The position numbers and the translations under genes are program-made. From assembly GCA_965661345.1 (NCBI GenBank), contig CBFIDK010000001.1:74543-138542 (forward strand): a stretch of DNA of 64,000 nucleotides. Direction: 5' to 3'. Positions 1 through 27,368 of the stretch are shown here, in pieces (position 1 is the stretch's first letter; each line of letters opens with the position of its first letter). The notes beneath the pieces were generated by a model. That model saw nothing but the letters and a program-made list of their open reading frames with translations. It ran no database searches and was not told the DNA's origin. The DNA comes from Flavobacteriales bacterium. GTDB taxonomy: Bacteria > Bacteroidota > Bacteroidia > Flavobacteriales > UBA7312.

Positions 1-156
1 ACCAGAAGTTGCTGTTGCGGTAGTTTCATAATATGGTGCTCTTAGAAAATCATATGTAAATCCTAAAATCAGACCTATCACAAAGAATATCGCAATGAAT
101 CTCCATTGTCTGTATAAAAAATTGAGAATAGATTTTAATAAATTAAATATGTCCAT
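1..156 (-). CDS. Partial CDS (N-terminus only, continues past window start): putative polysaccharide chain-length determinant (Wzz/PCP-like) membrane protein
   Basis: Not in the ORF track because it runs off the window. A minus-strand ATG at 156 lies 5 nt after the stop of the upstream Wzy-like gene. Hand translation: MDIFNLLKSILNFLYRQWRFIAIFFVIGLILGFTYDFLRAPYYETTATATSG. This gives a short N-tail, one TM helix, then a P-x-Y-x-x-x-A type segment, which is the usual Wzz N-terminal layout. Locus context agrees. Confidence 0.35.
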   Translation of the reverse strand, partial: MDIFNLLKSILNFLYRQWRFIAIFFVIGLILGFTYDFLRAPYYETTATATSG

Positions 157-161
157 AGTAG

Positions 162-1379
162 CTAATTTTTAGTACTCAATTGATATTGAGCAGTTTTGCA
201 AATGTATATAAATATAAAAAGATAAATTGTCCAAATAAATAATGATGAACTTGAGGAAAATAATAATAAGTTAAACAAAACTATTTGAATGCTTAAATCA
301 AAGTCTTTATGAGTCCAACTAATAAACACAAGGTAAGTATTGAGTAATATATATCCTAAAACAGCAAGAACACCACTATTTATTAAGATTTCAAAAATGT
401 AAGAATGTGGATTAACAATATGTGACAAATTAGGATCATTTATCGTTTGAAAATATTGTAAGGAGTAATCAATACCATAACCCATTCCATAGCTAGAAAA
501 GATAGACAGTAATGAGTGTTTGTAGAGGAAAAGACGAATAGACGTCGATTGTCTATCTGAAAATAATAAGTCAGTTTTTAGCTCTTTAAAACTATCCAGA
601 GCCTGCATATACCAATTGGGTTCTAAAAAAATCACACCAATAAATATTATGAAAATTCCAATTACGGAAATTGATGCTAATTTTATTGGATACCTATATA
701 AAAGGTAAATCAACGAAACAACCAAAGAAATTCTACTTTGTGAATAATAAACTATCAATAAATGAATAGCTACTGCTGCAAAAAGCCAAATCATTGATTG
801 TTTCTTTTCTTTATCTAAAGTACTTAACAAATACATAAACATAAGTGTAAAAATAGATGCAAAGTCATTCGAATTAAAATAAACAACCGTAGGTGAATAA
901 GTGAGCCAATATGGCGCGTCAAATAAAACAGAAGTACTAAGATGATTACCTGTAAATATCTCGTAAAAAGCATATAATGCATACAGGATATAAAACACTA
1001 AAGTAATCTGATTAAAAACCTTAAAAAATCTATCTCTATTTGATAAAAACGCATTATACAAAGCGAAAATTAAGACAAGTAAAAAAGTAAAATTAAGAAT
1101 AGAAGTAAACTCGTAATCGTATGCAAATAAAGTATACCTAAAAAAAGTTACTATATAAGTGTGAAAAAATAAATAAAGAAAATAAAGCAAAGAAAAAATA
1201 AGTACTGGTTGTAAACTAACTTTCTGCTTTAACAAAACTACCTTTTGGAATAAAAGAACTGAAAAAAACAGTACGACTATTGGCAGTATTAACCTCAAAG
1301 GATAAAGATTTGGTCCTATCCCAAAAGCATTCATCAAATAAATAGATGACAAAAATAATATGAGTAGTAAACTAGTCAA
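162..1379 (-). CDS. Polytopic membrane protein, O-antigen polymerase/ligase (Wzy_C-like) family
   Basis: 405 aa with about 10 hydrophobic helices. It has a Wzy_C-like segment (YYSQSRISLVVSLIYLLY), is extremely AT-rich and sits in the glycan locus. Polymerase and ligase cannot be told apart by eye. Confidence 0.6.
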   Translation of the reverse strand: MTSLLLILFLSSIYLMNAFGIGPNLYPLRLILPIVVLFFSVLLFQKVVLLKQKVSLQPVLIFSLLYFLYLFFHTYIVTFFRYTLFAYDYEFTSILNFTFLLVLIFALYNAFLSNRDRFFKVFNQITLVFYILYALYAFYEIFTGNHLSTSVLFDAPYWLTYSPTVVYFNSNDFASIFTLMFMYLLSTLDKEKKQSMIWLFAAVAIHLLIVYYSQSRISLVVSLIYLLYRYPIKLASISVIGIFIIFIGVIFLEPNWYMQALDSFKELKTDLLFSDRQSTSIRLFLYKHSLLSIFSSYGMGYGIDYSLQYFQTINDPNLSHIVNPHSYIFEILINSGVLAVLGYILLNTYLVFISWTHKDFDLSIQIVLFNLLLFSSSSSLFIWTIYLFIFIYICKTAQYQLSTKN

Positions 1380-2481
1380 TGGATAAGTTTACAGATTTAA
1401 ATTTCATATTGATGTACAATAACATTAACCAAAACAAAGAGTTAATAAAAAGTATTGACTCGACCATGCCAAGTAAAAAAACTGGTATTATAATTATTAA
1501 AAAATCGTTATAACGAGAAATGTAAAATTTAATGTATTTGTATATCATCAGAAATACATAAAAGATAACAAAGAAAACTCCTAAGTTAGAAGATTCGTTA
1601 ATATATGAGTTATGAGCAGACTTCCCATCAACAAATGTAGTAGATGGGCCACTACCAAAAAGCAAGTGAGTACCATCATTCAGCATATTACTTATAATTT
1701 TTGACCATATTTCAAATCTACCAGATGAACCTGATTTCTGAATTTTATTAACTAATTTAATGTCAGAATCTATCAAAAAGGCATTAAATGCTATTATGCT
1801 TACAAGCAAAATACCTACCCCTAAAAGACTATAAAAACTAAGTCGATTAACAGACTTTGACATTTTTATTAGGTAAAGAATTAAAAAAACTAATATGAAA
1901 AGTAATGAACCACGAGAATTAGTAAAAATTAAGAAGGGTAATAACGAGAACACATAAACCCATTTAAACACCGATTTCTTAAAACTCAAAACAGAAAAAG
2001 CTATCATAAAAGCAATAAACATTCCAAATGAATTAGAATTAATAAAAATTCCAGATGCTTTTTCAAAGCCCAATAGCTCTGGATATCCAATTCTCATAAG
2101 ATACCAAGAAGATGCTAAGACACCATAAGAGAAAAATACTAATAATTTATTCAAAAGATTAGTATTAAAACTAATACCAGTAATTGAAAATAGAGATAAA
2201 ATAATTATTATAAAAACAGCTGTATTATAACCTCCTAAGTGTAGATGACTAGAAGATATTACACTTAAAATACAAAACACTACACATGGAACAATAAATA
2301 ATAGCGCACCAAAATCGTATTTGAATTTCTTAAAGTTAAAGGCAATTAAAAAGAAAAAACACAGAAGAATAATTTCATTAAGAAAAGGGAAAAATAAATC
2401 TACAAATGAATCAGAAAGAGTTGCACACATAAATATTATAGAAAATAGCAAAGAATTTATATGTGAAAAAGATATCTTCAT
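1372..2481 (-). CDS. Polytopic membrane protein, O-antigen ligase/polymerase (Wzy_C-like) family, second copy
   Basis: 369 aa, polytopic, with the motif IFTNSRGSLLFILVFLILY typical of Wzy_C/O-antigen-ligase domains. It overlaps the downstream gene by 8 nt. Confidence 0.6.
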   Translation of the reverse strand: MKISFSHINSLLFSIIFMCATLSDSFVDLFFPFLNEIILLCFFFLIAFNFKKFKYDFGALLFIVPCVVFCILSVISSSHLHLGGYNTAVFIIIILSLFSITGISFNTNLLNKLLVFFSYGVLASSWYLMRIGYPELLGFEKASGIFINSNSFGMFIAFMIAFSVLSFKKSVFKWVYVFSLLPFLIFTNSRGSLLFILVFLILYLIKMSKSVNRLSFYSLLGVGILLVSIIAFNAFLIDSDIKLVNKIQKSGSSGRFEIWSKIISNMLNDGTHLLFGSGPSTTFVDGKSAHNSYINESSNLGVFFVIFYVFLMIYKYIKFYISRYNDFLIIIIPVFLLGMVESILFINSLFWLMLLYINMKFKSVNLSID

Positions 2482-3617
2482 CAGCTGTTTTTACTCTCTT
2501 TAAATATTGAAATTAATCGAGATGAAATAACATCCTCAGAAAAATTATCAATAACGTATTTTCTAATGTATGATGAATCAAATTCAGCATTTGTTATTTT
2601 AAGTAATTCATGCTCCAGATTTTCTAAATCACATAAAACACCAAGTTTTGAGTCAGTAATTATAGACTCTGGCCCACCTGATTTGGAAGAAATAACTGGA
2701 ACACCACAAGACATGGCTTCTATAAGAACAACACCAAAAGTTTCGTGAAAACTAGACAACACAAAACAATCCGAACGTTGTATTTCTAATTTTACTTGAT
2801 CTCTTTTTTGCCTACCCAACAAATGAACCTGACTATTTAACTCTTCATTATTTATAAAAGCTGATAGTTTTTTAAATTCTGGACCATCTCCCACAATTCT
2901 GAGATGATAGTTTTCTTGACCAAAGAATGTTTTTTTAAACGCCTTTATCAGCCCAATTTGATTCTTATTTTTATCCAAATTTGCAATATTCAAAAAGGTA
3001 AATATTTTATTTTCAGCCTTTTTTAATTGTGGTTTAAAGAAGTGCGTATCAACAACATTTGGAATATAAGTGAACTGCTTTCTAAACTTATCTGTTAGTA
3101 GAGCACAAAATGGCTCACTCACAGCAACATTATGCTGGCTTTTTGAATACACTTCTTCAGCTAAATCAATAGCATTCTTGTTGTAGTTATTTCTAACAAA
3201 ACCTGAGGAATGTTCAGTAACAATAAAAGAAATTTTATATGTTTCTTTAATCCAAATGGCAATCTCACCAGCTAGAAAGGTATGAACATGGATGATGTCA
3301 GGAGTGCCATTTTCTTCAATATATTTTTTAAATAATTGTTTGCCTTTTTCAAGTCTTACTCTTGCTGTTCTTTTTTTCAGTTTGGGGTAAGATATGAATG
3401 GCTTTACATAGGTTGGAATACCGCTATCGTTATAGAATTCATCAGAAAAATTAAAACGTTTGCTCTTTAAAATATTGGGAATAGTTATAGGCATAGGACA
3501 AATTACTCCAACCTTACAACCATTACTTAGCAAGGCTTTAGCCTGATCAAAATAGAATAGTGAATTGACAGGATTAAACTTATTTTTATAAGCTGTTGTT
3601 ATGAGTAAAACATGCAT
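2481..3617 (-). CDS. Glycosyltransferase, GT4 (GT-B fold) family
   Basis: 378 aa. It has the RIVGDGPE block and the E-x7-E signature ETFGVVLIEAMSCGVPVISS. Its start overlaps the stop of the upstream flippase gene by 1 nt. Confidence 0.8.
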   Translation of the reverse strand: MHVLLITTAYKNKFNPVNSLFYFDQAKALLSNGCKVGVICPMPITIPNILKSKRFNFSDEFYNDSGIPTYVKPFISYPKLKKRTARVRLEKGKQLFKKYIEENGTPDIIHVHTFLAGEIAIWIKETYKISFIVTEHSSGFVRNNYNKNAIDLAEEVYSKSQHNVAVSEPFCALLTDKFRKQFTYIPNVVDTHFFKPQLKKAENKIFTFLNIANLDKNKNQIGLIKAFKKTFFGQENYHLRIVGDGPEFKKLSAFINNEELNSQVHLLGRQKRDQVKLEIQRSDCFVLSSFHETFGVVLIEAMSCGVPVISSKSGGPESIITDSKLGVLCDLENLEHELLKITNAEFDSSYIRKYVIDNFSEDVISSRLISIFKESKNS

Positions 3618-4933
3618 TAGCCTTTCTTTAAAATTAAAACAAGTTTATTTTTATACAATTGAATATCAGATCTTTTGAGAATAATAAAATCCGAAAATAA
3701 CACCTTATTTTTCACTGAAAAAACAATGGATTTTATAATGACATCTAACACATAAGCGCAAGAAGTTGCCAAGGCAGCTCCTTTAATACCGTAAGCAGGT
3801 ATTAACCAAAGATTCAACAATAGATTTGTAATAGCAATAACAATTGCAATATAAGTATTAATCTCAGGTTGCCCACGACCCGTAAAATCATTGGCTAAAA
3901 CTCTTCCCATTGAAAAGATAACTACCCCAGGAATCAATATTAAAAAAGGAACAACACTTTGCATATATTCTTCTCCGAATAGTAGCACTATCAACCAATG
4001 GCTAAATACAGCTAAAAATAAGCCACCTAAGACTGAAATAAATAAAGTGTTTCGGGAAGCTAAGGATGTGAACTTATTTTTAGAGCCATCGTCATCTAGG
4101 TTAGCAACACGAGCAAACAATACGGCCGATACTGATTGAGATACCATCCAAATTCGCTCAGATAATAATACCGCAATAGAATATATTCCTACAGAAGCAT
4201 CGTCTAAAAAATAGGCAATCAAAAACATATCTAGCCTGTAATTTAAAAATGTAAGCACATTGCTAAAGTGCCCTTTTATCCCAAAATAAAAACTCTCTCT
4301 AAGATAGGTAATAGAGTATTTTTTAGGCCAAAATAAATTATAAGACTTTTTCAAAAAATAGAATGTAACGATAAGCATAAGCAGTTGTGCGGCAGCAAAA
4401 CTAACTATTGCACCAAGTATACCCCAGCCTAGAAACCAAACAAATAATAATGAAAAAACAAGAAGGCCAAATTGATTGAGGATAACAATTATATTGAATT
4501 TTTCAAATTCTTCCTTCCCTTGAAATATGGTTGGTAAATTTTTTTGAATAAACAAAATAGGCAAGATCATCAATACATAAAGCATCAGTTTTGCGCTAAT
4601 ATTCTCAAACAAAAAATCTTTGAAAAAAAAGACGATGAGTATTCCTATTAAAATAGAAAACAAACTAAGAATTAAGGATGTAAATAAATTTGTTGAATAT
4701 ATTTCTTCGTCAGAATACTTTTTTTTACCAACAAAAAAAACAGTTGAAGTAGATAGTCCAGCATTGAAAAAGGTATATAGAATAGTCGGCAACAAAATAG
4801 CCAGTGTGTATTGCCCCTGTCCTTCCGCTCCTAATGATCTCGCTATTATCATTGTAGACAATATACCAAAGCCAATACTTAACACTTGCCTAGTAATGGT
4901 TAACAACGAATTATGAAACGCTCCTTTTTTCAT
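3617..4933 (-). CDS. Polysaccharide/oligosaccharide flippase, MOP superfamily (Wzx-like)
   Basis: 438 aa with about 12-14 TM helices. The N-terminus (LLTITRQVLSIGFGILSTMIIARSLGAEGQGQY) is typical of Polysacc_synt-type flippases. Confidence 0.7.
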   Translation of the reverse strand: MKKGAFHNSLLTITRQVLSIGFGILSTMIIARSLGAEGQGQYTLAILLPTILYTFFNAGLSTSTVFFVGKKKYSDEEIYSTNLFTSLILSLFSILIGILIVFFFKDFLFENISAKLMLYVLMILPILFIQKNLPTIFQGKEEFEKFNIIVILNQFGLLVFSLLFVWFLGWGILGAIVSFAAAQLLMLIVTFYFLKKSYNLFWPKKYSITYLRESFYFGIKGHFSNVLTFLNYRLDMFLIAYFLDDASVGIYSIAVLLSERIWMVSQSVSAVLFARVANLDDDGSKNKFTSLASRNTLFISVLGGLFLAVFSHWLIVLLFGEEYMQSVVPFLILIPGVVIFSMGRVLANDFTGRGQPEINTYIAIVIAITNLLLNLWLIPAYGIKGAALATSCAYVLDVIIKSIVFSVKNKVLFSDFIILKRSDIQLYKNKLVLILKKG

Positions 4934-4939
4934 ACCAGG

Positions 4940-6199
4940 CTATTTATTTTTAGCAATTCTTAAAATAATTATGATTCTGAAGATATAAAAAATTGACATT
5001 AAAAAACTAAATAAAAGTAAATAATCCTCAAAATTCCAAGAGAAAAAATAGGCATAACTAATTGTTCCCATTGAAACAATAAACATTATCAATTGTAAAA
5101 TGAAACTGAGTTTTTGTTTTTCAAATGCAGTATGAATACTTGTTAATGGTGAAGCTATGAATTTAAAAAGGAAAAAAGGAATTAAACACTTAGCATAAAC
5201 ACCTGACAACCTCCACTCTTCTCCAAAAACAAAAGCAAATAAATCTTCAACAACAAAATACGCTACTCCAAAAAACAATACAGATACTATTGATAATTGA
5301 ATGACCATTCGTTTGGTCAAGTTATAAGCCTGATTAGTCGTATTTCTTTGGTTTACAGCATCCTCTAAAAAAACTTGATTGATGGAATTACCCAAAAATG
5401 TAAAAGGAGTACCTAAAGCTCTATACATCAAAGAGTATAAGCCTAGTAAGGAAGTAGAATATAATATAGGAATGAGCAAGTTAACAGCATTAACGCTTAA
5501 ATTATTAAGTAGTATTGAAAAATTAGTGTATTTCGGAAAATCAATATACCTTTTAGCTACAGTTTTTAATGTTGAAAAATTAACTTTTAACAATTGTAAT
5601 TTTGAGGTTTTCCACAAATAATAAGTTGTAAAAAGGGATGAAATTATCTTTCCAATCATTAAGCCAAAAAGTCCAGACTTTAGAGCTGGAAAAACTATTT
5701 GAATAGAGGCAAATGATACTGAACGGTATATTTCAGAGTTTGAAATAGATTTGAATTCCTTTTTTCTAAGTTGATAATAATTCAAAGTATTATAAACTCC
5801 AATTGAAAAGACAACCAATGGAATAAAATATATCCAAAAGACTAATTTAGGTTCATTTAAAATTTCTAAAAAAAAAGACGAAAAAAACAGGAAGAACAGT
5901 AATAGAATACTACTTACAATTAGACTTATAAGTAAGGACAAACTTGTTAAATGATTAGCTTCTTCTTCAGATTTTACTAAAACGAGAGCTTGTTCGTAAC
6001 GGCCATTTACAATTGACCCCAAAATGGTAGAAATCGAAGTAAATAAGGCCAAAACTCCTAACTCTCTTGGTGTATATAACCTGGTAATAACAGGAGATAT
6101 AAGTATAGGAATTATTTGAGAAATAGCAGACCCTTTAAACAGAGTAAATATATTCGTATAGAATAGAGAATCTTTAAATACTTTTTTTAAACCTGCCAT
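4940..6199 (-). CDS. Second oligosaccharide flippase (Wzx-like, MOP superfamily)
   Basis: 419 aa, polytopic. The N-terminus (FKGSAISQIIPILISPVITRLYTPRELGVLALF) is typical of Wzx/LPS-biosynthesis flippases. Confidence 0.6.
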   Translation of the reverse strand: MAGLKKVFKDSLFYTNIFTLFKGSAISQIIPILISPVITRLYTPRELGVLALFTSISTILGSIVNGRYEQALVLVKSEEEANHLTSLSLLISLIVSSILLLFFLFFSSFFLEILNEPKLVFWIYFIPLVVFSIGVYNTLNYYQLRKKEFKSISNSEIYRSVSFASIQIVFPALKSGLFGLMIGKIISSLFTTYYLWKTSKLQLLKVNFSTLKTVAKRYIDFPKYTNFSILLNNLSVNAVNLLIPILYSTSLLGLYSLMYRALGTPFTFLGNSINQVFLEDAVNQRNTTNQAYNLTKRMVIQLSIVSVLFFGVAYFVVEDLFAFVFGEEWRLSGVYAKCLIPFFLFKFIASPLTSIHTAFEKQKLSFILQLIMFIVSMGTISYAYFFSWNFEDYLLLFSFLMSIFYIFRIIIILRIAKNK

Positions 6200-6225
6200 A
6201 GTTGTTTAGACAACAATTCTATCCA

Positions 6226-7311
6226 CTAAAAAAACCTTGTAATATATGTTTGTTGTTCATCAGTTATAAATGGACTCATAGGCAATGAAAATACTTCATT
6301 GGCTGCTTTTTCTGAAACTGGAAAATCACCAAGCTTATGATTAAGAGACTCAAAGCATGTTTGAAGATGTAGAGGTTTTGGATAATGTATAGCCGTTGGA
6401 ACGCCATTATCATTTAATTTTGACAGTAGTTCCTCTCTATTTTCAGATTGCAAAGTAAATTGAGCAAAAACACTTGTTCTTCCATCTTTTATAGTTGGTA
6501 ACTTGAGTCCCTTATCCTTGAGTAAATCCATATACTTTTGGCCTTTTTCTCCTCTTAATTGGACTTCATTATCAAAATACTTGAGCTTTACATCTAATAT
6601 AGCTGCTTGAATAGCATCCAAACGACCATTTATTCCAATTACTTCATGATCGTATCTTCGTTTAGAGCCGTGCGCTAAGAAAAGTCGTGCTTTTTCTGCT
6701 AGTTCATCATCATTGGTAAAAAGTGCACCACCATCACCATAACAGCCTAAAGGCTTTGAAGGAAAAAAACTTGTACATCCAAAATGACTTAGATTACAGC
6801 TTTTTTTACCCTTGTAGGTTGCGCCAAAACTTTGTGCTGCATCTTCTATAACTATTAGGTTATGTTTTTCTGCAATAGCATTAATTTTATCCATATCGGC
6901 AATTTGACCGTAAAGGGATACTGGCATAATTGCTTTTGTTCTGGACGTAATTTTAGCTTCAATTAATTCGGCATTGATGTTATAGGTGTCGGCTTCTATA
7001 TCAACAAAAACAGGGATTGCACCTAACAAGCTAATTACCTCACTTGATGCAATGAATGTAAAAGGCGTTGTTATTATTTCATCATTTGGCTTTATTCCTA
7101 TCGCCATTAGAGCTAATAACAGAGCGTCTGTTCCACTCGCACAACCAATGGCATGCTTTGCGCCTACATATTCAGACAAATTCTCTTCAAATTGTTTAAC
7201 TGAAGGCCCCATAATATATTGAGAGGTATCTAAAATATTATGAATTGCTGAATCGATTTCTTCTTTGTATGTTTTATACTGTGATTGTAAATCAATGAAA
7301 GGTATCTCCAT
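6226..7311 (-). CDS. wbpE: DegT/DnrJ/EryC1-type PLP aminotransferase, WbpE-like (UDP-2-acetamido-2-deoxy-3-oxo-glucuronate aminotransferase)
   Basis: 361 aa. The blocks AIMPVSLYGQ, VIEDAAQSFGATYKGKKSCNLS and CTSFFPSKPLGCYGDGGALFTNDDELA closely track Pseudomonas WbpE as I remember it. It lies in wbpA-B-D-E order. Confidence 0.85.
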   Translation of the reverse strand: MEIPFIDLQSQYKTYKEEIDSAIHNILDTSQYIMGPSVKQFEENLSEYVGAKHAIGCASGTDALLLALMAIGIKPNDEIITTPFTFIASSEVISLLGAIPVFVDIEADTYNINAELIEAKITSRTKAIMPVSLYGQIADMDKINAIAEKHNLIVIEDAAQSFGATYKGKKSCNLSHFGCTSFFPSKPLGCYGDGGALFTNDDELAEKARLFLAHGSKRRYDHEVIGINGRLDAIQAAILDVKLKYFDNEVQLRGEKGQKYMDLLKDKGLKLPTIKDGRTSVFAQFTLQSENREELLSKLNDNGVPTAIHYPKPLHLQTCFESLNHKLGDFPVSEKAANEVFSLPMSPFITDEQQTYITRFF

Positions 7312-7314
7312 AAA

Positions 7315-7884
7315 CTAAAGAATTTGAATTGAACCGTTAGATAATTTATACGTTGTATTATCGAACGTATCTATTGCTATATTATTATCATTAAATACTA
7401 ATCTATTGCCGGCTTTACTAACCCAGCCTTGATGTTTTGCAGGAACACCATATATCATTTCAAAAGGCTTTACATCTTTTGTCACCACACTACCTGCTCC
7501 AATCAGGGCATACTCACCGACGGTAATTCCACAAACTATTGTAGCATTTGCACCTACTGTGCAACCTTTCTTCAATAATGTTTTTTGGAATTCTTCTTTG
7601 CGAACAATAAAACTTCTAGGGTTTATAACATTTGTGAAGACCATTGAAGGTCCTAAGAAAACATCATCTTCTATCTCTACGCCTTCAAAAATTGAAACAT
7701 TATTCTGAACCTTTACTCCGTTTCCTATTGTAACATTTGGACCAACAACACAGTTTTGACCGAAAGAACTGCGCTCTCCAATTACTGTATTGTTAAGAAT
7801 ATGAGAAAAATGCCAAACTTTTGTTCCTTCTCCGATACTGACATTTTCATCAATCACAGAACTACTATGAATAAAATAACTCAT
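7315..7884 (-). CDS. wbpD: Hexapeptide-repeat (left-handed beta-helix) N-acetyltransferase, WbpD-like
   Basis: 189 aa with VWHFSHI, GPSMVFTNVINPRS and GANATIVCGITVGEYALIGAGSVV. It overlaps wbpB-like by 4 nt. Confidence 0.8.
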   Translation of the reverse strand: MSYFIHSSSVIDENVSIGEGTKVWHFSHILNNTVIGERSSFGQNCVVGPNVTIGNGVKVQNNVSIFEGVEIEDDVFLGPSMVFTNVINPRSFIVRKEEFQKTLLKKGCTVGANATIVCGITVGEYALIGAGSVVTKDVKPFEMIYGVPAKHQGWVSKAGNRLVFNDNNIAIDTFDNTTYKLSNGSIQIL

Positions 7885-8831
7885 AATTTACAAAATGGAT
7901 GATAATCTCCTTTTAACCCTACAGGTTGAGAATTTCTTATATCGTGCACTATATCTATTGAAGTTTTTGCTTCCATCAATTTAAATCCATTGCCTGCCAA
8001 AACTGCCTCATAACTCTTAGTATGAAGATCGGTAAATGTTCCGCTAAATTCTATTTCTTTTCCTTCGACAGTTATTGATCGATATGTTCTTTGCCCAGTT
8101 GATTTAATATGTTCGGGTATTAAATCATAATTCACACTTAGAAACCAACGTACTCTTGCTCTTTCTAATTCTAAAAATCCTGCTGCCTTATCATCATCAG
8201 AAACGTGACAAACATTCTGTTTAACTGAACCGAAAATCCATGTCAGCATATCAAAAAAATGAATGCCAATATTAGTAGCAATTCCACCAGATTTAGATTC
8301 ATCACCTTTCCAGGAAATAAAATACCACTTTCCTCTACTCGCTAAATAAGTAAGATCGATATCATAGATTTTATCTTTTGGGCCATTTTCAACTTTTTCT
8401 TTTAATGCAATTATCGATGGGTGAAGTCTTAATTGAAGAATGTTATTAATAGTATGACCTGTTCGTTTCTCGACCTCTGCCAAAGCCTCAATATTCCATG
8501 GGTTTAAGACCAATGGTTTTTCACATATAACATCCGAACCATTTCTTAAAGCTAAACGAATGTGAGCATCATGAAGGTAGTTTGGAGAACATATACTGAC
8601 ATAATCTATCTTTGAATTTGAGCGCCTTAACTTGTCCAAATGACGATCAAATCGTTCTGGTTCTGTAAAAAAATTTGCCTCAGGAAAATAACTGTCCATT
8701 ACTCCTACACAATCAAATTTATCAAGTGCAACTGATAAATTATTGCCTGTGTCTTTAATAGCTTTCATATGCCTAGTGGCAATATATCCAGCCGCACCTA
8801 TTAATGCAAAATTTTTCACTATAACCTCCAA
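7881..8831 (-). CDS. wbpB: Gfo/Idh/MocA oxidoreductase, WbpB-like (UDP-GlcNAcA 3-dehydrogenase)
   Basis: 316 aa. It has the Rossmann start FALIGAAGYIATRHMKAIK plus YVSICSPNYLH, ICEKPL and NIGIHFFDML. The order and motifs match WbpB. Confidence 0.8.
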   Translation of the reverse strand: MEVIVKNFALIGAAGYIATRHMKAIKDTGNNLSVALDKFDCVGVMDSYFPEANFFTEPERFDRHLDKLRRSNSKIDYVSICSPNYLHDAHIRLALRNGSDVICEKPLVLNPWNIEALAEVEKRTGHTINNILQLRLHPSIIALKEKVENGPKDKIYDIDLTYLASRGKWYFISWKGDESKSGGIATNIGIHFFDMLTWIFGSVKQNVCHVSDDDKAAGFLELERARVRWFLSVNYDLIPEHIKSTGQRTYRSITVEGKEIEFSGTFTDLHTKSYEAVLAGNGFKLMEAKTSIDIVHDIRNSQPVGLKGDYHPFCKL

Positions 8832-10084
8832 CTTGGTTCATCAACTATTCCTTTTACATCCAAAATAATCGGAGTTCCAGAAGAAATTGATTTATAGTTT
8901 TCATTATTTAGTTCAGTAAATTGATGATGCGCTACGGAAACAATGATAGCATCATATAATTTATCAGACTTGAATGGATTTGAAATTAATTCTCTATCGT
9001 ATTCAGATGACATTTCTTTTTTATCAACCCATGGGTCGTAAATATGCACATTACATCCAAAATCTTCAAGTTCATCAACAATATCAATAACTTTTGTATT
9101 TCTAATATCAGGACAATTCTCTTTAAAAGTAAAACCCATTATTAAAATATCGGAGTCTTTAATTTTTTTATCGTAATCAACTAAGAAATGGACGGTCTTC
9201 TTGGCTATATAAGCAGACATCCCATTATTTATTTGTCTTGAAGAAAGTATTAAGTTAGGCTTATATCCTAATTTCTGTGCTTTATATGTAAGGTAATACG
9301 GGTCTACTCCTATGCAATGTCCTCCAACTAATCCGGGTTGAAATTTTAGAAAATTCCATTTTGTTCCTGCAGCTTTTAAAACCTCATTTGATGAAATCCC
9401 CATTGCGTCAAAAATTAAGGCTAGCTCATTAACTAAAGCAATATTCACATCTCTTTGTGTGTTTTCAATAACCTTTGCCGCTTCTGCAACCTTTATCGAT
9501 GATGCTTTATAGGTTCCAGCTGTAATAATAGTGGCGTACAAGTCATCTACTACTTTAGCTGTTTCCTCATTTGAACCACTTGTAATTTTTAAAATCTTAG
9601 TTAAAGTACGTTCTTTATCACCAGGATTTATCCTTTCCGGACTATAGCCACAGAAGAAGTCTTTATTGAAAGTTAATCCTGATTCTTTTTCTAAAATCGG
9701 CACACATTCATCTTCTGTTACACCAGGGTAAACTGTAGATTCATAAATGACTATATCGCCTTTTTTAATAACAGACCCCACAGAATGACTAGAACTAATA
9801 AGCGGAGTTAAATCAGGAAGATTCTTTTTATTAATTGGTGTTGGAACTGTTATGATAAATATGTTACAGTCTTTAGCATCGTTAATATCAGTAGTGTAGC
9901 TTAGATGTGTGGCTGACTCCAAGTCCTCTTTAGTCATTTCTAAAGTTCTGTCGAAACCTGTTTTGAGTTCATCAATCCGATCTAGATTGATATCTATTCC
10001 AATTGTAGTAATTTTTTTTCCAAATTCAACGGCCAAAGGGATACCAACATACCCCAACCCAATCACTGCAATTTTATGATTCAT
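8819..10084 (-). CDS. wbpA: UDP-N-acetyl-D-glucosamine 6-dehydrogenase (nucleotide-sugar dehydrogenase), WbpA-like
   Basis: 421 aa. It has the N-terminal IAVIGLGYVGIPLA and a catalytic Cys block (LVGGHCIGVDPYYL). It is the first gene of the wbp block. Confidence 0.8.
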   Translation of the reverse strand: MNHKIAVIGLGYVGIPLAVEFGKKITTIGIDINLDRIDELKTGFDRTLEMTKEDLESATHLSYTTDINDAKDCNIFIITVPTPINKKNLPDLTPLISSSHSVGSVIKKGDIVIYESTVYPGVTEDECVPILEKESGLTFNKDFFCGYSPERINPGDKERTLTKILKITSGSNEETAKVVDDLYATIITAGTYKASSIKVAEAAKVIENTQRDVNIALVNELALIFDAMGISSNEVLKAAGTKWNFLKFQPGLVGGHCIGVDPYYLTYKAQKLGYKPNLILSSRQINNGMSAYIAKKTVHFLVDYDKKIKDSDILIMGFTFKENCPDIRNTKVIDIVDELEDFGCNVHIYDPWVDKKEMSSEYDRELISNPFKSDKLYDAIIVSVAHHQFTELNNENYKSISSGTPIILDVKGIVDEPSWRL

Positions 10085-10094
10085 CTAAGACTAT

Positions 10095-10128
10095 TTAAAA
10101 AATTAAAGAGTCTTCAAATGAAGACTCT
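10095..10128 (-). terminator. Perfect 10-bp-stem hairpin followed (on minus strand) by a T-rich run. Either the gldN terminator or a structured wbpA leader.
   Basis: AGAGTCTTCA-AA-TGAAGACTCT at 10107-10128. On the minus strand it is followed by TTAATTTTTT. It lies between the gldN stop (10157) and the wbpA start (10084). Confidence 0.5.
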
Positions 10129-10156
10129 AAAAGTTAATATCGGAAATATTTCAAAA

Positions 10157-11014
10157 TTAATATTCCCAGAGGTCGTGCTCAATATTAAAGATTTCTTCTT
10201 TAATTTTTTCTGCTTCTAACAATGCGTCGATTCCCTCTTTATATTCTGATATTTTTCTATCATATTTATTGGACTCTTTGACAATTCGACTGCTGAAAAA
10301 ACGTTTGTGAAATATGTCGTCATAGGTTAAACGTGCCGCATCATTTTTTCTGTGGTTGAAAACTTCAGCTTTTGAAAGTATTTTTCTCGCATCTGGAAAA
10401 TATACCCAGAACAAAGAGGTTTCACCAGTGTAAACACCATCTTCATTTTTACGGTCAATTACTGGACAGATTCCAATAATTCTTACTTCCATTACAGAGC
10501 GTTGCTTGTCAAAAAACCATTCTTCTTTTATTCTGTATTTTTTAACTTCATGTCTTTCAAAAATATTAAATGTAGTATCTAAATAATATTCTTGAGTATC
10601 AGGGTCGAATCGCTCTTCAACAGACATTTTCTCTCCCTCCATTATACCAATCATTTCTACTTCTGAAGGGGACATTGGCGACTGAAATTCGTCATCATTA
10701 GTAGCATTTCCATAAGCAGTAATTGTACCCTCATCAATTGCTTGCATTAAGACATCAATTAAATTCTGACGATCATTTATCGGTAATAATGGGTAGTAGA
10801 ATACTTGATTCATCTTTTCTCTTAAATCAATAACTCTTTCAATTTTAGTTGACCACATTACATCTGCCTCACGAACGTGCTGATAAGGCTGAATCATTCT
10901 TTCTTTACCACCATCACGAATATCTTTTTCATAAGCACCATCAAGAATATCTTGTGAATAAGCGACTTGCGAAAAACATATCAACGAAATAATTACTAAA
11001 ACAATATTTTTCAT
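10157..11014 (-). CDS. gldN: Gliding motility / T9SS periplasmic ring protein GldN (PorN)
   Basis: 285 aa with a signal peptide (cleavage AYS|QD). It is the fourth gene of the canonical gldK-L-M-N order. Confidence 0.85.
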   Translation of the reverse strand: MKNIVLVIISLICFSQVAYSQDILDGAYEKDIRDGGKERMIQPYQHVREADVMWSTKIERVIDLREKMNQVFYYPLLPINDRQNLIDVLMQAIDEGTITAYGNATNDDEFQSPMSPSEVEMIGIMEGEKMSVEERFDPDTQEYYLDTTFNIFERHEVKKYRIKEEWFFDKQRSVMEVRIIGICPVIDRKNEDGVYTGETSLFWVYFPDARKILSKAEVFNHRKNDAARLTYDDIFHKRFFSSRIVKESNKYDRKISEYKEGIDALLEAEKIKEEIFNIEHDLWEY

Positions 11015-11025
11015 AATAAAAAGAT

Positions 11026-12690
11026 TTAATTAACAGTAAGCTTTACTGAAGGCAACGACTTAGGCGCGCCATCAGGTCCCTTACAGGTAATATTAGTAAA
11101 ATATAAAACTGAGCCAATCTGAAGTGACTCAAATAACGTTTTCATTTCTTGTGTAACCTTGTTGCCTTTGGCATACTTAGTTACTAATTCACCTCTTTGT
11201 GTAACGTCAACTGAAAAACCAGTAATATTATATCTGATATCAAATACAAAGTTGGTTAATTCTGCATATAGTTTTGCGTTATTTGAAAGTAATTGGCTTT
11301 TTTTAATTTTTTGATTCTTTGAGCCTAGAAACTTTGGTTCAGGCTTAGGAGTTCTCATAACTCTATACTCAATAGAACCCATGTTTCTTTTCTTACCATC
11401 TATCTCAGCTGAAACACTAATTTTAGCTTTACCCGTTACCTTTGGAAAAACTTCCCAACCTCCCCCTCTAACTTTCTTAACTGAACCGTTATCACAACTC
11501 ACACTTAACTTATCACTTGGCACTCCAGGAACTGAAACGTCAATAGGATTTCCTAAGGCATCGTCTTTTAATGGATAACTAGCAAGTATATAAAAAACAT
11601 TCATCTTAGTAGGTGAAACAACTAAGCTGGCCTTAGCTACTTGATATTCTCCATCGAAAGGATATAATTTAGTGCCTGCATCGGTTTTCATAGCAATTAA
11701 ACCTCCCCATTTTTTGTACCCTTCAGAAGTAGCTTTAGTAGAATACTTTCCTTTGCCTGCAACAACAGGTATTGAATCATAATTACCAACCATGTTATAT
11801 TTTCCGTTTTCATCGACCTCATAGTCTCCTACATAAATGATTGGATTTTGGGTAGTATCTTTTGCGGCTAAAAATACATCTGCTTTAAAAGAATCGCCTA
11901 AGAAAACATAATTAGAAGTTGCTATTTGAATAGCATCAGCCGACGTAAATTTTAAGGACCCAGCATCAATTTCTTGCTGAAGATACTTTATCACATCTGA
12001 TTCAGCATTTCTTACATCAGTTTGAATTTTAGATAAAATGGTAACTGCGGCGATTAGTGGCATATCTTGGAAGTTTTGTTGAACCCAAGATAACATTCCA
12101 GAACCATATTTTTCTTTTCTTTCTTCAAATGAAAAAGTAGTTGTCAATGAAGACTGAATTGATAGCTCATCAACCATGTTTTTCAAAAACTCTCTATATT
12201 CTTCAAGACTTTCTTGAAGTATTTGTCCATTTCCCTTATTGATCATTAATTCACCTGGTCTCTCTCTATCTTTTTTACTGATAACATCAACCATCAGTTT
12301 TTTCTTCTGATCAGAACTTAAATCATCATAAGTAACATCTTCAATTGGTTCTTCACCTTCAAAAGTAACTTGCTTGTCAGAAAGCATTACCATATCAAAC
12401 TTGAGCCTCTGAATATCATCTACAATTTTATCGGCTTTTTCTTTCACGCTAAACGCTTTATCTCGCCATGGACCAGCTTTTGCCTCATTTGTTTCAGCAG
12501 CAGCTACAAAAGAAGAATAAACTTCATCATTTTTGCTGTTGAAATTTTGGGTTGTTTTTACAATCCCACCATTAATTTTTTGAAATGCGTCGAGAACCTC
12601 CTTAGAAACGTTCAGTGCTAACATCGCTGTTAGTACTAAATACATCATCCCAATCATTTTTTGCCTCGGCGATAAATTATTTCCTGCCAT
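11026..12690 (-). CDS. gldM: Gliding motility / T9SS motor-shaft protein GldM (PorM)
   Basis: 554 aa. The start MAGNNLSPRQKMIGMMYLVLTAMLALNVSKEVL is characteristic of GldM, with a single N-terminal TM followed by a long periplasmic region. Confidence 0.85.
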   Translation of the reverse strand: MAGNNLSPRQKMIGMMYLVLTAMLALNVSKEVLDAFQKINGGIVKTTQNFNSKNDEVYSSFVAAAETNEAKAGPWRDKAFSVKEKADKIVDDIQRLKFDMVMLSDKQVTFEGEEPIEDVTYDDLSSDQKKKLMVDVISKKDRERPGELMINKGNGQILQESLEEYREFLKNMVDELSIQSSLTTTFSFEERKEKYGSGMLSWVQQNFQDMPLIAAVTILSKIQTDVRNAESDVIKYLQQEIDAGSLKFTSADAIQIATSNYVFLGDSFKADVFLAAKDTTQNPIIYVGDYEVDENGKYNMVGNYDSIPVVAGKGKYSTKATSEGYKKWGGLIAMKTDAGTKLYPFDGEYQVAKASLVVSPTKMNVFYILASYPLKDDALGNPIDVSVPGVPSDKLSVSCDNGSVKKVRGGGWEVFPKVTGKAKISVSAEIDGKKRNMGSIEYRVMRTPKPEPKFLGSKNQKIKKSQLLSNNAKLYAELTNFVFDIRYNITGFSVDVTQRGELVTKYAKGNKVTQEMKTLFESLQIGSVLYFTNITCKGPDGAPKSLPSVKLTVN

Positions 12691-12723
12691 TAGATTTTTC
12701 TAATTTACTAGTGAAAATTAATT

Positions 12724-13350
12724 TTATTTATTACTCATTGCGCTAAGCATGTTCGCATACATCTTGTTAAGTGCTTCAAGATTAGCTCCTAATTTAGATA
12801 TCTCTACCTGGAACTTTTCAGAGTCTCCAACAGAATTGCCCATGTTTTGCATTGTTTTAAGTTGCAAATCGTAATATGTATTCATTTCAGCTAACTTTCT
12901 TGCAGCTTCACGCATTTGATCGCTGTAATCTCCTGTTGCTGATACAGCGTCCATAGATTTATTTACACCCTCAACCGTCTCGTTGAATGATCGTAAGTTG
13001 TCTCCTAACCTCGTAATTAAAGCTTGGTCTACATTTGCATTTTCAAGCATATTATCTAGTTCTTGAACTGGAGTTTTAGGCGTATTTTTAGATGACTTTT
13101 CGTCTGGGTCCTTCATGTATGCTAACTCTGGATAAACTAAACTCCAATCTGGATCTTCATGCGGTTTTTCGAAAGCAGAAAAGAAGAAAATTATCGCCTC
13201 TACAGAAAGACCAATAGTCAACATAGCTCCTGCTCCTGTCCAGTGTTGTAGCTTGAACAAGGCGCCAAGAATTACAATTGCAGCACCAAATCCATACAAC
13301 TTGGCCATGTTATTTTTAAATTTCTTTGAGTTAGGGTTTAATATTGCCAT
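12724..13350 (-). CDS. gldL: Gliding motility / T9SS motor protein GldL (PorL)
   Basis: 208 aa. It has two N-terminal TM helices (YGFGAAIVILGALFKLQHW and AMLTIGLSVEAIIFFFSAFE, the second with an intramembrane Glu) and a cytoplasmic tail. Confidence 0.85.
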   Translation of the reverse strand: MAILNPNSKKFKNNMAKLYGFGAAIVILGALFKLQHWTGAGAMLTIGLSVEAIIFFFSAFEKPHEDPDWSLVYPELAYMKDPDEKSSKNTPKTPVQELDNMLENANVDQALITRLGDNLRSFNETVEGVNKSMDAVSATGDYSDQMREAARKLAEMNTYYDLQLKTMQNMGNSVGDSEKFQVEISKLGANLEALNKMYANMLSAMSNK

Positions 13351-13380
13351 AATATATTTACTAAAAGTTTATTTATAAAA

Positions 13381-14679
13381 TTATCTAAAATCTGCTTTAT
13401 CTCTTCCAATGAATGAGATTACATTTCTAAAGCCAATATAGGACTTAGCAGTATCTTGATACTCATAATCTCTTGTTCCAACTTGAATGAAATGTGAAAT
13501 GTCTTTCCACGAACCTCCGCGTATTACTTTTCTCTTAAGAATTTGAGGATCTGTATCCTGAGCATCATAATTGAAATCCATGTTCATATCGTGTGAGAAA
13601 TTGAAAGCTGATTCGTCATATGCGTTACTAGTCCACTCAGCAACGTTACCAGACATATCGTATAGTCCAAAGTTATTTGGATTGTATGAGGCTACTTTTA
13701 CAGTTTTAATACCACCGTCAGCAACATAATTACCTCTTCTAGGCTTGAAATTCGCTAAGAAACAACCTACTTCGTTTGTTGTGTAAGGACCTCCCCAAGG
13801 GTATGGAGATAAATCAAAGCCACCTCTTGCAGCGTACTCCCACTCAGTCTCTGTAGGTAAACGGAATTCATCATGTAATGGCTCATCTCTTGACATTAAA
13901 TATTTATCAAGGATACTTGTTCTCCACTTTGAAAATGCAACCGCTTGTTTCCAACTTACACCCACTACTGGATAATCGTCAAATGATGGGTGGTGAAAAT
14001 AATTTCTTGACCAAGGGTCATTGTAAGAATATGTATAGTCAGATGTCCATACTAAAGTGTCAGGGAAAATATTAAGCTCAGGTTTTTCGATAAACACAGA
14101 TCTATCGTTCTTACCTTGCGCTTTATTTTCTTTTGATGACGCTCTTTGAATGTCAACATCTTCATATTTGAAGTTTAACTTTCTAGTATCAAATTCTCTT
14201 CTTGAGTAGAATCTTTCGTGTTCGGGCAAATACATTTCGTCTTCAAGCACTTCACGAACTTCTGAATCATCCCATCTTATTGGCCTATCCCAATCAATTC
14301 GTGGAGGATCAATGAAATTGCCATAGTCGTCTTCTTCAATGAGTTCATATCCTTCAACGCCATTCTCACCAAGTATTACTCGCGCAATAGAATCTCTTAC
14401 CCAAGATACAAACTGTCTGTATTCGTTATTTGTGATTTCAGTTTCGTCAATATAAAATGCCGCTACAGAAACTGTTTTGTGTTGTGTTACATGAGCATAA
14501 GGAACATCTTGATCACCAGGCCCCATATTAAAACTTCCCTGAGGAATAAATACCATTCCGTAAGGGTCAGTTGGATTCCAGATAGGTCTATTTTGAACGC
14601 CTATCAATTCACCATTGCCTGATGTGGAGCAGCTTGCTAACACTATCGCAACAAATCCAAAGACAAATAAATTTTTCAT
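13381..14679 (-). CDS. gldK: Gliding motility / T9SS lipoprotein GldK (PorK), FGE/sulfatase-modifying-factor fold
   Basis: The ORF track gives 13381..14730. I moved the start to ATG 14679, which yields the lipoprotein signal MKNLFVFGFVAIVLASC. FGE-type blocks are present (YPVVGVSWKQAVAFSKW, VIRGGSWKD). Confidence 0.9.
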   Translation of the reverse strand: MKNLFVFGFVAIVLASCSTSGNGELIGVQNRPIWNPTDPYGMVFIPQGSFNMGPGDQDVPYAHVTQHKTVSVAAFYIDETEITNNEYRQFVSWVRDSIARVILGENGVEGYELIEEDDYGNFIDPPRIDWDRPIRWDDSEVREVLEDEMYLPEHERFYSRREFDTRKLNFKYEDVDIQRASSKENKAQGKNDRSVFIEKPELNIFPDTLVWTSDYTYSYNDPWSRNYFHHPSFDDYPVVGVSWKQAVAFSKWRTSILDKYLMSRDEPLHDEFRLPTETEWEYAARGGFDLSPYPWGGPYTTNEVGCFLANFKPRRGNYVADGGIKTVKVASYNPNNFGLYDMSGNVAEWTSNAYDESAFNFSHDMNMDFNYDAQDTDPQILKRKVIRGGSWKDISHFIQVGTRDYEYQDTAKSYIGFRNVISFIGRDKADFR

Positions 14680-14730
14680 AATACTTTTATTTAGCCTCTT
14701 TAAGAGGGTTAATAATTCATTCAAAGCCAC

Positions 14731-14759
14731 AAAATCACCACTAAATTAGTGATGATTTT
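14731..14759 (-). promoter_or_regulatory. Strong hairpin (12 of 13 bp, 3-nt loop) in the porP-gldK spacer. Terminator/attenuator or structured gldK leader.
   Basis: AAAATCACCACTA-AAT-TAGTGATGATTTT. On the minus strand it is followed by GTGGCTTTG. A TATATTTG -7-type box (plus-strand CAAATATA at 14774-14781) lies just upstream on the minus strand. Confidence 0.45.
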
Positions 14760-14787
14760 ACTTTGGAAAGCAACAAATATAACATTT

Positions 14788-15693
14788 TTATAGGAATCTA
14801 GGGTTTTTAAATCCTTTGACAACCTTGTTATAATCTATTTTAAATTGATAACCTAACATAAACTCAAAGCTTCCAGATGTAGAAACATTGGTCGTTGGAA
14901 TATCATATGAGAATCCAAATTTTAAATCATCATTTATGTGCATACCTAGCAATAGAACAGCACGAGAACTAGGTCTATATGTAACTCCACCCCATATCTT
15001 TTTATTGTATTCAAGGATAGATGTTAAATCTAAGGTAGTTGTAACACCTTCTGTTTTAACAAGTAATGATGGTTTTACATCAATTTTTGGATTCAATTCG
15101 TGAACGTATCCTGCCGTTAAATAATAATGTCTTTTTACATCAATTATATCTACAGATGTGGCAATTGTTGGTTCATTAATGTGCTTTGAAGATAAACCAA
15201 CATAAACTTTATCAGAATTGAAAAATAAACCTGCGCCTAAATCAAAACTAGAGCCTTTTTCAGTAGAAGTTGGGATACTTGGATCTGGGTTTTGAGCAAT
15301 TATTCCGCTACCGTCAAGTCCATCCTGCATTACACCAACAGAAAGCCCTATACCTAAGTTACCACCTGCTAACTCAAATCTGTAAGCATAGGATAAGTTC
15401 AATGATAAAAATTCGTTTTGACCAATTTTGTCAGTAAGGATATTCAACCCAACACCGCCGTTTAACAATTGTAAAGGAGATTGAACAGATAAATTTGTTG
15501 TTACTGGAGCATCTTCAAAACCGACCCATTGACTACGGTGAAGTGCTGTAGCACAAATTGCCTCCTCATGTCCAGCCGATCCAGGGTTAAACGACAGATT
15601 ATTAAAAATATATTGACTGAATTGAGGATCTTGCTGAGCCCTAGAGTAAAAAGCTAGAAATAACAACAAGAATAGCAAAAAATATTTTTTCAT
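14788..15693 (-). CDS. PorP/SprF family T9SS outer-membrane protein
   Basis: The ORF track gives 14788..15720. Moving the start to ATG 15693 gives MKKYFLLFLLLFLAFYSRA|QQDPQFSQYIFNNLSFNPGSAG, the hallmark PorP/SprF N-terminus. It lies immediately upstream of gldK, as in the porP-porKLMN arrangement. Confidence 0.8.
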   Translation of the reverse strand: MKKYFLLFLLLFLAFYSRAQQDPQFSQYIFNNLSFNPGSAGHEEAICATALHRSQWVGFEDAPVTTNLSVQSPLQLLNGGVGLNILTDKIGQNEFLSLNLSYAYRFELAGGNLGIGLSVGVMQDGLDGSGIIAQNPDPSIPTSTEKGSSFDLGAGLFFNSDKVYVGLSSKHINEPTIATSVDIIDVKRHYYLTAGYVHELNPKIDVKPSLLVKTEGVTTTLDLTSILEYNKKIWGGVTYRPSSRAVLLLGMHINDDLKFGFSYDIPTTNVSTSGSFEFMLGYQFKIDYNKVVKGFKNPRFL

Positions 15694-15788
15694 AAAAGGT
15701 AACGTCAAAACGTTTATCACAATTAATATTCGGCTAAAATAACTATTTTTTTTAAGTAGAAAAACAAAAAAAAGTTATCGTTACAAGA

Positions 15789-26522: not shown

Positions 26523-26539
26523 ACTAAATCTTCATAGTT

Positions 26540-27352: not shown

Positions 27353-27368
27353 AATTAATAACTCAGGT

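Follow-up and report, generated by a model that had tools for sequence, protein, structure and literature searches.

What does it mean that the core operon of a type IX secretion system (T9SS) lies directly beside a pathway for a diacetamido sugar? This question is raised by a 64,000-nucleotide stretch of DNA from a Flavobacteriales bacterium (contig CBFIDK010000001.1, positions 74,543 to 138,542; hereafter the window), in which an unbroken string of minus-strand genes (window positions 1-15720) runs from porP/sprF-gldK-gldL-gldM-gldN into polysaccharide genes, beginning with counterparts of wbpA, wbpB, wbpD and wbpE. A preliminary description of the window took the string for a candidate colinear locus that combines T9SS secretion with synthesis of the glycan to which secreted cargo is anchored. 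After comparing the string with its counterparts across the Bacteroidota, we favor a different reading: on balance, the T9SS core operon and an ordinary Wzx/Wzy surface-polysaccharide locus appear to be separate functional units that, within one group of marine Flavobacteriales, have been inherited as neighbors.

Both halves of the string contain the genes that had been assigned to them. All five T9SS core proteins scored above the NCBIfam cut-offs and are encoded in the expected order on one strand (Table 1). The best matches to GldN (up to 97% identity) came from uncultured marine 'Flavobacteriales bacterium' metagenome-assembled genomes (MAGs) and from ocean metagenomes. The wbpA, wbpB, wbpD and wbpE counterparts begin 72 nt after gldN. 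The structures 3oa2, 3mqg and 3nu7 were each far ahead as the best PDB match for the WbpB-, WbpD- and WbpE-type proteins, respectively. The WbpA-type protein scored slightly below the 592-bit cut-off of the TviB equivalog model and passed a nucleotide-sugar dehydrogenase subfamily model; its family and gene context suggest UDP-N-acetylglucosamine (UDP-GlcNAc) as the substrate.

The wbp genes open a polysaccharide cluster of at least 25 kb. We followed the cluster beyond the window on a marine metagenome contig (L098) from a near-identical strain, which is 99.2% identical (BLASTN) over window positions 1-6394 and extends 10 kb past the window start. The additional genes are on the same strand, tightly packed, and encode, in order, the Wzz-like protein, a family 4 glycosyltransferase (GT4), two unmatched proteins, a family 2 glycosyltransferase (GT2), a 195-aa PglC-like Bac_transf protein, a DegT aminotransferase, a 626-aa Polysacc_synt_2 protein (PglF/WbpM type), a second GT4, and a WbaP-like initiating transferase (CoA_binding_3 plus Bac_transf). 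From wbpA on, genes overlap or are spaced by 26 nt or less, and this packing persists in L098 to the last complete open reading frame (ORF) before the WbaP-like gene. Window and L098 together thus encode the Wzx, Wzy_C, glycosyltransferases and initiating phosphoglycosyl transferase of a Wzx/Wzy-type locus. Of the genes that the preliminary description had placed after wbpE, Pfam confirmed the two Wzx-like flippases, the GT4 and the two Wzy_C proteins. The Wzz-like gene that is cut by the window edge is less firmly placed: its homologues scored 21.7 (full 282 aa, L098), 20.1, 16.2 and 15.2 bits on PF02706, all below the cut-off of 25.5, which leaves the Wzz-like label plausible.

The product of the Wbp block is probably a gluco-configured sugar. 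Judged from the enzyme families, UDP-GlcNAc would be converted to UDP-2,3-diacetamido-2,3-dideoxy-glucuronic acid in four steps, in which WbpA oxidizes C6, WbpB oxidizes C3, WbpE transaminates and WbpD N-acetylates. A WbpI-type 2-epimerase is needed only for the manno form. As the preliminary description had stated for the window, no such epimerase (Epimerase_2) was found in Pfam scans, which covered minus-strand ORFs of at least 80 aa at 1-17.5 kb, all but two of the ORFs with 120 aa or more between 17.5 and 64 kb, and the ORFs called in the 10-kb extension; the sugar therefore probably stays in the gluco configuration.

The junction between gldN and wbpA is conserved in the relatives of the window. 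We assembled gldN loci fetched at graded distances together with 80 sampled loci, one genome per species across the Bacteroidota, and mapped the window proteins onto the sampled loci by tblastn. Twelve lineages besides the window made up clade A (TopA 73-92% and GldN 53-96% identical to the window proteins), 12 loci made up a sister clade, clade B (TopA 56-66%), and 63 loci remained. The adjacency, which the preliminary description had proposed to look for in close relatives, was present in every one of them: wbpA follows gldN within about 50-120 nt in 12 of 12 clade-A lineages, and wbpB-D-E come next wherever the sequence reaches.

Beyond clade A, the sugar genes at this site are different or missing. 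In clade B, gldN is followed by genes for a Wzz-like protein, Ugd, Wzx and Wzy_C, and further on by a GT2 gene, a PglC-like gene and a DegT gene. Four clade-B loci have a WbpA-like gene (52-57% identity) in front of the polysaccharide cluster, and WbpB-, WbpD- and WbpE-type genes are absent from the site in all 12. The 63 remaining loci share the upstream block topA-arginase-like-porP-gldKLMN, and in about 57 of them no polysaccharide gene is recognizable downstream of gldN, over distances of up to 10 kb. The association of gldN with polysaccharide genes is thus characteristic of a single family-level group rather than of T9SS operons at large, and the more deeply conserved feature is a polysaccharide locus beside gldN, not the Wbp pathway beside gldN. 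A literature search for gldN together with wbpA found no description of linkage; the one review in which both appear does not report it.

The gap between gldN and wbpA contains a conserved hairpin that resembles an intrinsic terminator. Read on the minus strand (10128-10097), it consists of AGAGTCTTCA-tttg-AAGACTCT followed by a T-run. A hairpin and T-run are found at the orthologous position in nearly all clade-A and clade-B loci, and the stems fall into three classes (GTCTTC/GAAGAC, GCCCTCG/CGAGGGC, and GCYCC/GGGGC). An alignment of 12 loci revealed compensatory changes, with both sides altered and pairing kept, in five of the eight predicted pairs. The hairpin is absent in two loci, L013 and L009, of which L009 is a long-read contig full of errors. 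Deeper members of clade A have a longer gap that contains, downstream of the terminator and 26-30 nt before the wbpA ATG, an exact TAnnTTTG box that resembles the Bacteroidota -7 promoter element. We read this arrangement as placing gldN and wbpA in two transcription units, with read-through possible in the window's own lineage. A single gld-wbp supra-operon is unlikely because the terminator is both conserved and covarying. The proposal that the colinear genes act as one unit is not supported: a conserved, covarying terminator separates gldN from wbpA, the sister clade has other sugar genes, and most Bacteroidota have none.

Two further loci are notable. In one clade-A MAG (L016:10860-11090; GldN 88% identical), wbpA is reduced to a remnant of about 44 codons that runs from its start to a stop just ahead of wbpB, next to an intact terminator and intact wbpB-D-E. 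The remnant reflects either a genuine deletion, with loss of the first step of the pathway, or an artifact of MAG assembly. In an unrelated Flavobacteriales MAG (L075:14400-20800), a cluster on the opposite strand, 4.5-9.3 kb after gldN, encodes WbpA-like (54%), WbpD-like (54%) and WbpE-like (42%) proteins. It looks like an independent placement of Wbp-type genes near gldN.

Divergence rises and GC content falls toward the center of the polysaccharide cluster. The GC content is 0.27-0.31 at positions 1-6000 versus 0.33-0.37 in the next 10 kb. Identity to the closest relative declines steeply after wbpE (Table 1), and in distant clade-A members the genes after wbpE have been replaced, by a sulfotransferase gene in L015 and L096, by cytidylyltransferase and glycerophosphotransferase genes in L014, and by ugd and an epimerase gene in L013. 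In deep clade-A members the identities of WbpA-E (69-80%) follow that of TopA (73-77%), indicating vertical inheritance of the Wbp module. With a fixed flank and a center that is low in GC and variable among close relatives, the region behaves as O-antigen loci do.

The conserved terminator, the different sugar genes of the sister clade, the roughly 57 of 63 loci that lack such genes, and the steep divergence after wbpE argue together for an ordinary O-antigen-type locus. The first unit would be the phylum-wide porP-gldK-gldL-gldM-gldN operon, ended by the intrinsic terminator straight after gldN. The second would be the Wzx/Wzy locus of at least 25 kb, opening with a Wbp precursor module that is fixed in the clade. 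The downstream transferases (GT4, GT2, and the PglC-like and WbaP-like initiating enzymes) would build the sugar into undecaprenyl-linked units, which would be flipped by Wzx and polymerized by the hypervariable Wzy_C protein under Wzz-like control; the other, better conserved Wzy_C protein would perform the ligation. The hypervariability of Wzy_C protein 1 suggests that it is the O-unit polymerase, and the conservation of Wzy_C protein 2 is what suggests a ligase-type enzyme (WaaL or PglL type). Ligation to lipid A-core would make the product a true O-antigen. In one family-level group the locus would be anchored beside gldN much as O-antigen loci are held between fixed housekeeping flanks. 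We infer that the T9SS and the polysaccharide locus are not functionally coupled.

Table 1. Features of the window that bear on the T9SS-polysaccharide junction, with the support for each and, where available, the identity of the product to that of the closest relative (TopA 92% identical).
Feature	Coordinates	Strand	Support	Identity to closest relative
porP/sprF-family T9SS outer-membrane protein, 310 aa	14788..15720	-	TIGR03519, 265 bits (cut-off 90.6); relatives likewise called as 310 aa	
gldK/porK ring lipoprotein	13381..14730	-	TIGR03525, 576 bits (cut-off 350)	
gldL/porL motor protein	12724..13350	-	TIGR03513, 171.5 bits (cut-off 68.3)	
gldM/porM motor protein	11026..12690	-	TIGR03517, 313 bits (cut-off 180)	
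gldN/porN ring subunit	10157..11014	-	TIGR03523, 206 bits (cut-off 85.9)	
Intrinsic-terminator-like hairpin AGAGTCTTCAtttgAAGACTCT plus T-run, in the 72-nt gldN-wbpA gap	10097..10128	-	Top terminator-like site of 1-17000	
wbpA/tviB-type putative UDP-GlcNAc 6-dehydrogenase, 421 aa	8819..10084	-	NF011729 (TviB), 555 bits; TIGR03026, 399 bits; three UDPG_MGDP_dh domains	87-91% (range for WbpA-E)
wbpB-type UDP-GlcNAcA 3-dehydrogenase	7881..8831	-	PDB 3oa2 (P. aeruginosa WbpB), E 1e-105; 3o9z, E 3e-99	87-91% (range for WbpA-E)
wbpD/wlbB-type 3-N-acetyltransferase	7315..7884	-	PDB 3mqg, E 1.4e-56; hexapeptide repeats	87-91% (range for WbpA-E)
wbpE-type pyridoxal-phosphate aminotransferase	6226..7311	-	PDB 3nu7 (WbpE), E 5e-121; PF01041, 403 bits	87-91% (range for WbpA-E)
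Wzx-type flippase 1, 26 nt after wbpE	4940..6199	-	PF13440, 85 bits	64-67% (range for Wzx 1 and 2)
Wzx-type flippase 2	3617..4933	-	PF01943, 72 bits; PF13440, 68 bits	64-67% (range for Wzx 1 and 2)
GT4 glycosyltransferase	2481..3617	-	PF00534, 123 bits	54%
Wzy_C protein 1, hypervariable	1372..2481	-	PF04932, 35 bits	Similarity to positional equivalent undetectable (E 1.1)
Wzy_C protein 2, moderately conserved (45-71% identity)	162..1379	-	PF04932, 53 bits	53%
Start of a plausible Wzz-like (chain-length determinant) gene, cut by the window edge	1..155	-	Translation; homologue scores sub-threshold	
Secreted protein with type A T9SS C-terminal sorting domain; cargo, outside the locus	39372..41105	-	PF18962, 52.5 bits; TIGR04183, 44.4 bits	

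Several observations weigh against this separation. The junction has been kept over deep divergence (GldN down to 53%, TopA 73%) with wbpABDE tracking the core genome, and such persistence would fit selection for linkage as well. L013 has a gap of 46 nt without a hairpin. In the window lineage, about 22 nt separate the T-run from the wbpA ATG, and there is no exact promoter-like box, the nearest being an imperfect TAATTTTT at -21; with so short a spacer and no exact box, expression of wbpA by read-through from the gld operon may occur. The content of the cluster also resembles that of a system known to anchor cargo. In the 2026 model of the anionic lipopolysaccharide (A-LPS) of Porphyromonas gingivalis, there are two undecaprenyl-linked units, an O-unit and a WbaP-started pentasaccharide linker, along with two flippases, one Wzy, one WaaL, and WzzP (PMC13086638). 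The two unrelated flippases, two Wzy_C proteins and two initiating transferases of the present cluster correspond to that parts list (PMC13086638). In addition, wbpE is directly followed by wzx, just as porS comes directly after porR in P. gingivalis (PMC7468200).

These resemblances raise the possibility that the locus makes the anchor glycan for type A T9SS cargo, with a Wbp-derived linking sugar on a lipopolysaccharide (LPS)-type polymer, and that its position beside gldKLMN reflects functional coupling and possibly co-transcription. We consider this unlikely. The parts list, the Wzz-like protein, and the wbpE-wzx order all fit it, as does the retention of the junction in all 12 clade-A lineages. 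Conservation of wbpABDE like core genes next to variable polymer genes is the pattern expected of a fixed linker on a variable polymer, and the lack of a WbpI match agrees with a linker in the gluco configuration, like that of P. gingivalis. The window encodes a protein with a type A C-terminal sorting domain (CTD), and in Cytophaga hutchinsonii loss of an O-antigen ligase mislocalizes CTD proteins (PMC11611037). However, the enzymes that make the P. gingivalis linking sugar reactive were not found in the window or its 10-kb extension. There, VimE (a CE4 deacetylase) strips the 2-N-acetyl group and VimA (a FemAB-like aminoacyl transferase) adds serine or glycine, giving the amine for attack by PorU (PMC7468200). 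Neither VimE-like CE4 nor VimA-like Acetyltransf_6/FemAB proteins turned up among the ORFs scanned in the window and in that extension (L098), and the claim that the whole functional set is present here therefore fell. A fully N-acetylated uronic acid would offer no amine nucleophile for sortase-type PorU transpeptidation (PMC7468200). Coupling is also difficult to reconcile with the conserved terminator and with a sister clade that retains the T9SS operon without wbpB, wbpD or wbpE at the site. Furthermore, Prevotella intermedia anchors cargo via an N-alanyl deoxyhexose, without WbpB, WbpD, VimA or VimE (PMC11969387), so that anchoring neither requires Wbp genes nor can be diagnosed from them. 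The 64-kb window encodes none of PorU, PorZ, PorV and PorQ.

The window encodes one CTD cargo protein where two had been proposed. The protein at 39372-41105 matched both CTD families (Table 1). We rejected a possible second cargo protein, encoded at 28218-29039, in which neither Pfam nor NCBIfam found a CTD, even at E 0.05-0.1. It is a secreted repeat protein of 273 aa, with a signal peptide, a long, highly acidic and repetitive body rich in D, E, F and N, and no family match.

A different possibility is that some of the genes in the region make a second glycan, distinct from LPS, that takes the Wbp sugar, either for protein O-glycosylation, with Wzy_C protein 2 as a PglL-like oligosaccharyltransferase, or for a capsule. 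N-acetylated uronic acids occur in flavobacterial protein O-glycans. The two flippases are just 24% identical (E 0.14), indicating that they are not recent duplicates; the two Wzy_C proteins differ greatly in conservation; and there are two Bac_transf initiating enzymes. The Wzy_C family includes both WaaL ligases and PglL O-oligosaccharyltransferases (PMC3643930). On the other side, no sequence feature sets apart ligase, polymerase and oligosaccharyltransferase, and a PDB sequence search with both Wzy_C proteins gave no match at E 1. The capsule export genes wza and wzc were not seen in the window or in L098, and the whole region is packed as a single string of genes. We regard a second glycan as improbable.

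A further reading keeps the O-antigen-type locus and adds cooperation with the T9SS core as the reason that the two stay together. The gluco-configured diacetamido-uronic acid would then belong to a linker unit with its own Wzx and initiating transferase, which would cap the variable polymer and tether type A CTD cargo. This would require an amine-generating step unrelated to VimA and VimE, perhaps carried out by cluster proteins that have no family match, and we think it quite unlikely. Finally, chance juxtaposition with a strain-specific, horizontally acquired island, which would account for the low GC content at 1-6000, for the replacement of Wzy_C protein 1 even in the closest relative and for the break of the near-identical contig inside wbpE, was rejected as very improbable, given that 12 of 12 relative lineages keep the junction and wbpABDE with identities following TopA and that the sister clade likewise has a polysaccharide locus at gldN.

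Other features of the polysaccharide cluster and its flanks are as follows. Conserved proteins of 275 and 161 aa are encoded ahead of the GT2 and PglC-like genes (L098:8382-9695); they had no family match, even at E 1 (Pfam) or E 0.05 (NCBIfam), and homologues (38-48%) occupy the same position in the sister clade. Position 1 of the 67-kb L098 contig corresponds to window position ~6549, inside the 3' part of wbpE, where conserved gives way to strain-variable sequence; such a break point would be typical of assembly breaks at variable loci.

Within the T9SS operon, the longest ORF for gldK has 449 aa; the calls of 432 aa in relatives imply that the gene starts near 14679. Only one copy of gldN is present in the window and in its clade. 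Tandem extra, gldO-like copies were seen in L030, L031, L035, L038, L040, L065, L070, L074, L078, L088 and L092, the last with three copies. Upstream, the order topA, arginase-family gene (15789-16943), porP, gldKLMN (topA and the arginase-family gene occupying 15789-19253 in the window) is common to most of the 80 Bacteroidota gldN loci, including Flavobacteriales, Bacteroidales, Sphingobacteriales and Chitinophaga-labelled MAGs. Linkage of topA and an arginase/formimidoylglutamase-like gene to the T9SS core operon appears to be phylum-wide.

Elsewhere in the window, three tandem paralogues (25704-28148; 272, 270 and 269 aa; 49-54% mutual identity) with signal-peptide-like N-termini lie directly after groEL; they had no Pfam or NCBIfam match. 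Genes for LptE (22028-22528), an LptC-related protein (59006-59524) and a BamG-family protein (60875-62122; 375 bits, cut-off 250) are scattered in the window and unlinked to the polysaccharide locus.

The conserved synteny of gldN and polysaccharide genes is a modest comparative result, and its components are of known kinds. It defines the site of the main surface-polysaccharide locus in an abundant, uncultured group of marine Flavobacteriales, with a fixed part (wbpABDE) and a diversifying part (wzx, glycosyltransferase genes and wzy) that should be useful for strain typing and for studies of phage and grazer interactions in ocean metagenomes. For anchoring of T9SS cargo, direct chemistry is limited to Porphyromonas, Tannerella and Prevotella, and Cytophaga has provided genetic hints (PMC7468200, PMC11969387, PMC11611037); we found no direct chemistry in the literature on Flavobacteriia. 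A lineage with the candidate glycan genes in one block beside gldN would be a convenient test case. If the two units do cooperate, glycan anchoring of T9SS cargo would extend to Flavobacteriia, with one compact locus in which to study it.

The two halves of the string, and the string as a whole, can be compared to well-known systems. The T9SS half has the same five genes in the same order as the porP-porKLMN and gldKLMN(O) operons of P. gingivalis and Flavobacterium johnsoniae, but lacks the gldO-type duplicate of gldN that about 11 other sampled loci have. In the Wbp/Vim linking-sugar system of P. gingivalis and T. forsythia, type A CTD cargo is amide-linked to the sugar through its mature C-terminus. 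Compared to the P. gingivalis A-LPS/Wbp-Vim system, there are shared WbpA, WbpB, WbpD and WbpE homologues, a wzx gene right after wbpE as in porR-porS, two flippases, proteins of the Wzy and WaaL families, a plausible Wzz-like protein, two initiating transferases, and a T9SS together with type A CTD cargo in one genome. In contrast, homologues of VimE, VimA and WbpS were not found in the present cluster, PorU and PorZ were not seen in the window, and any link of this cluster to cargo is hypothetical. The window genes are clustered beside gldN, whereas those of P. gingivalis were said in the preliminary description to be dispersed; what Veith 2020 confirms there is limited to the adjacency of porR, porS and wbpS.

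The Wbp block is similar to the Wbp/Wlb pathway for the B-band O-antigen of Pseudomonas aeruginosa O5 and the band A LPS of Bordetella. Four of the five enzymes are encoded in one block, with strong structure matches for WbpB, WlbB/WbpD and WbpE, and the block likewise sits within a Wzx/Wzy-type cluster. It differs in that no WbpI was found in the window, so that a uronic acid in the gluco form, not the manno form, is expected, in a WbpA counterpart that is nearest to the TviB model, just under its cut-off, and in a host that is a marine member of the Flavobacteriales.

In its overall architecture, the polysaccharide locus resembles the O-antigen clusters of enterobacteria, in which fixed galF-gnd flanks enclose a 5' end of conserved nucleotide-sugar genes together with hypervariable wzx, wzy and glycosyltransferase genes. 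Both have a fixed chromosomal anchor with a conserved precursor module first, and in both divergence climbs and GC content drops toward wzy, with gene replacement between close relatives. The locus described here differs from the enterobacterial clusters in that its anchor is a secretion-system gene and in that it is longer, with what seem to be two sets of flippases and initiating enzymes.

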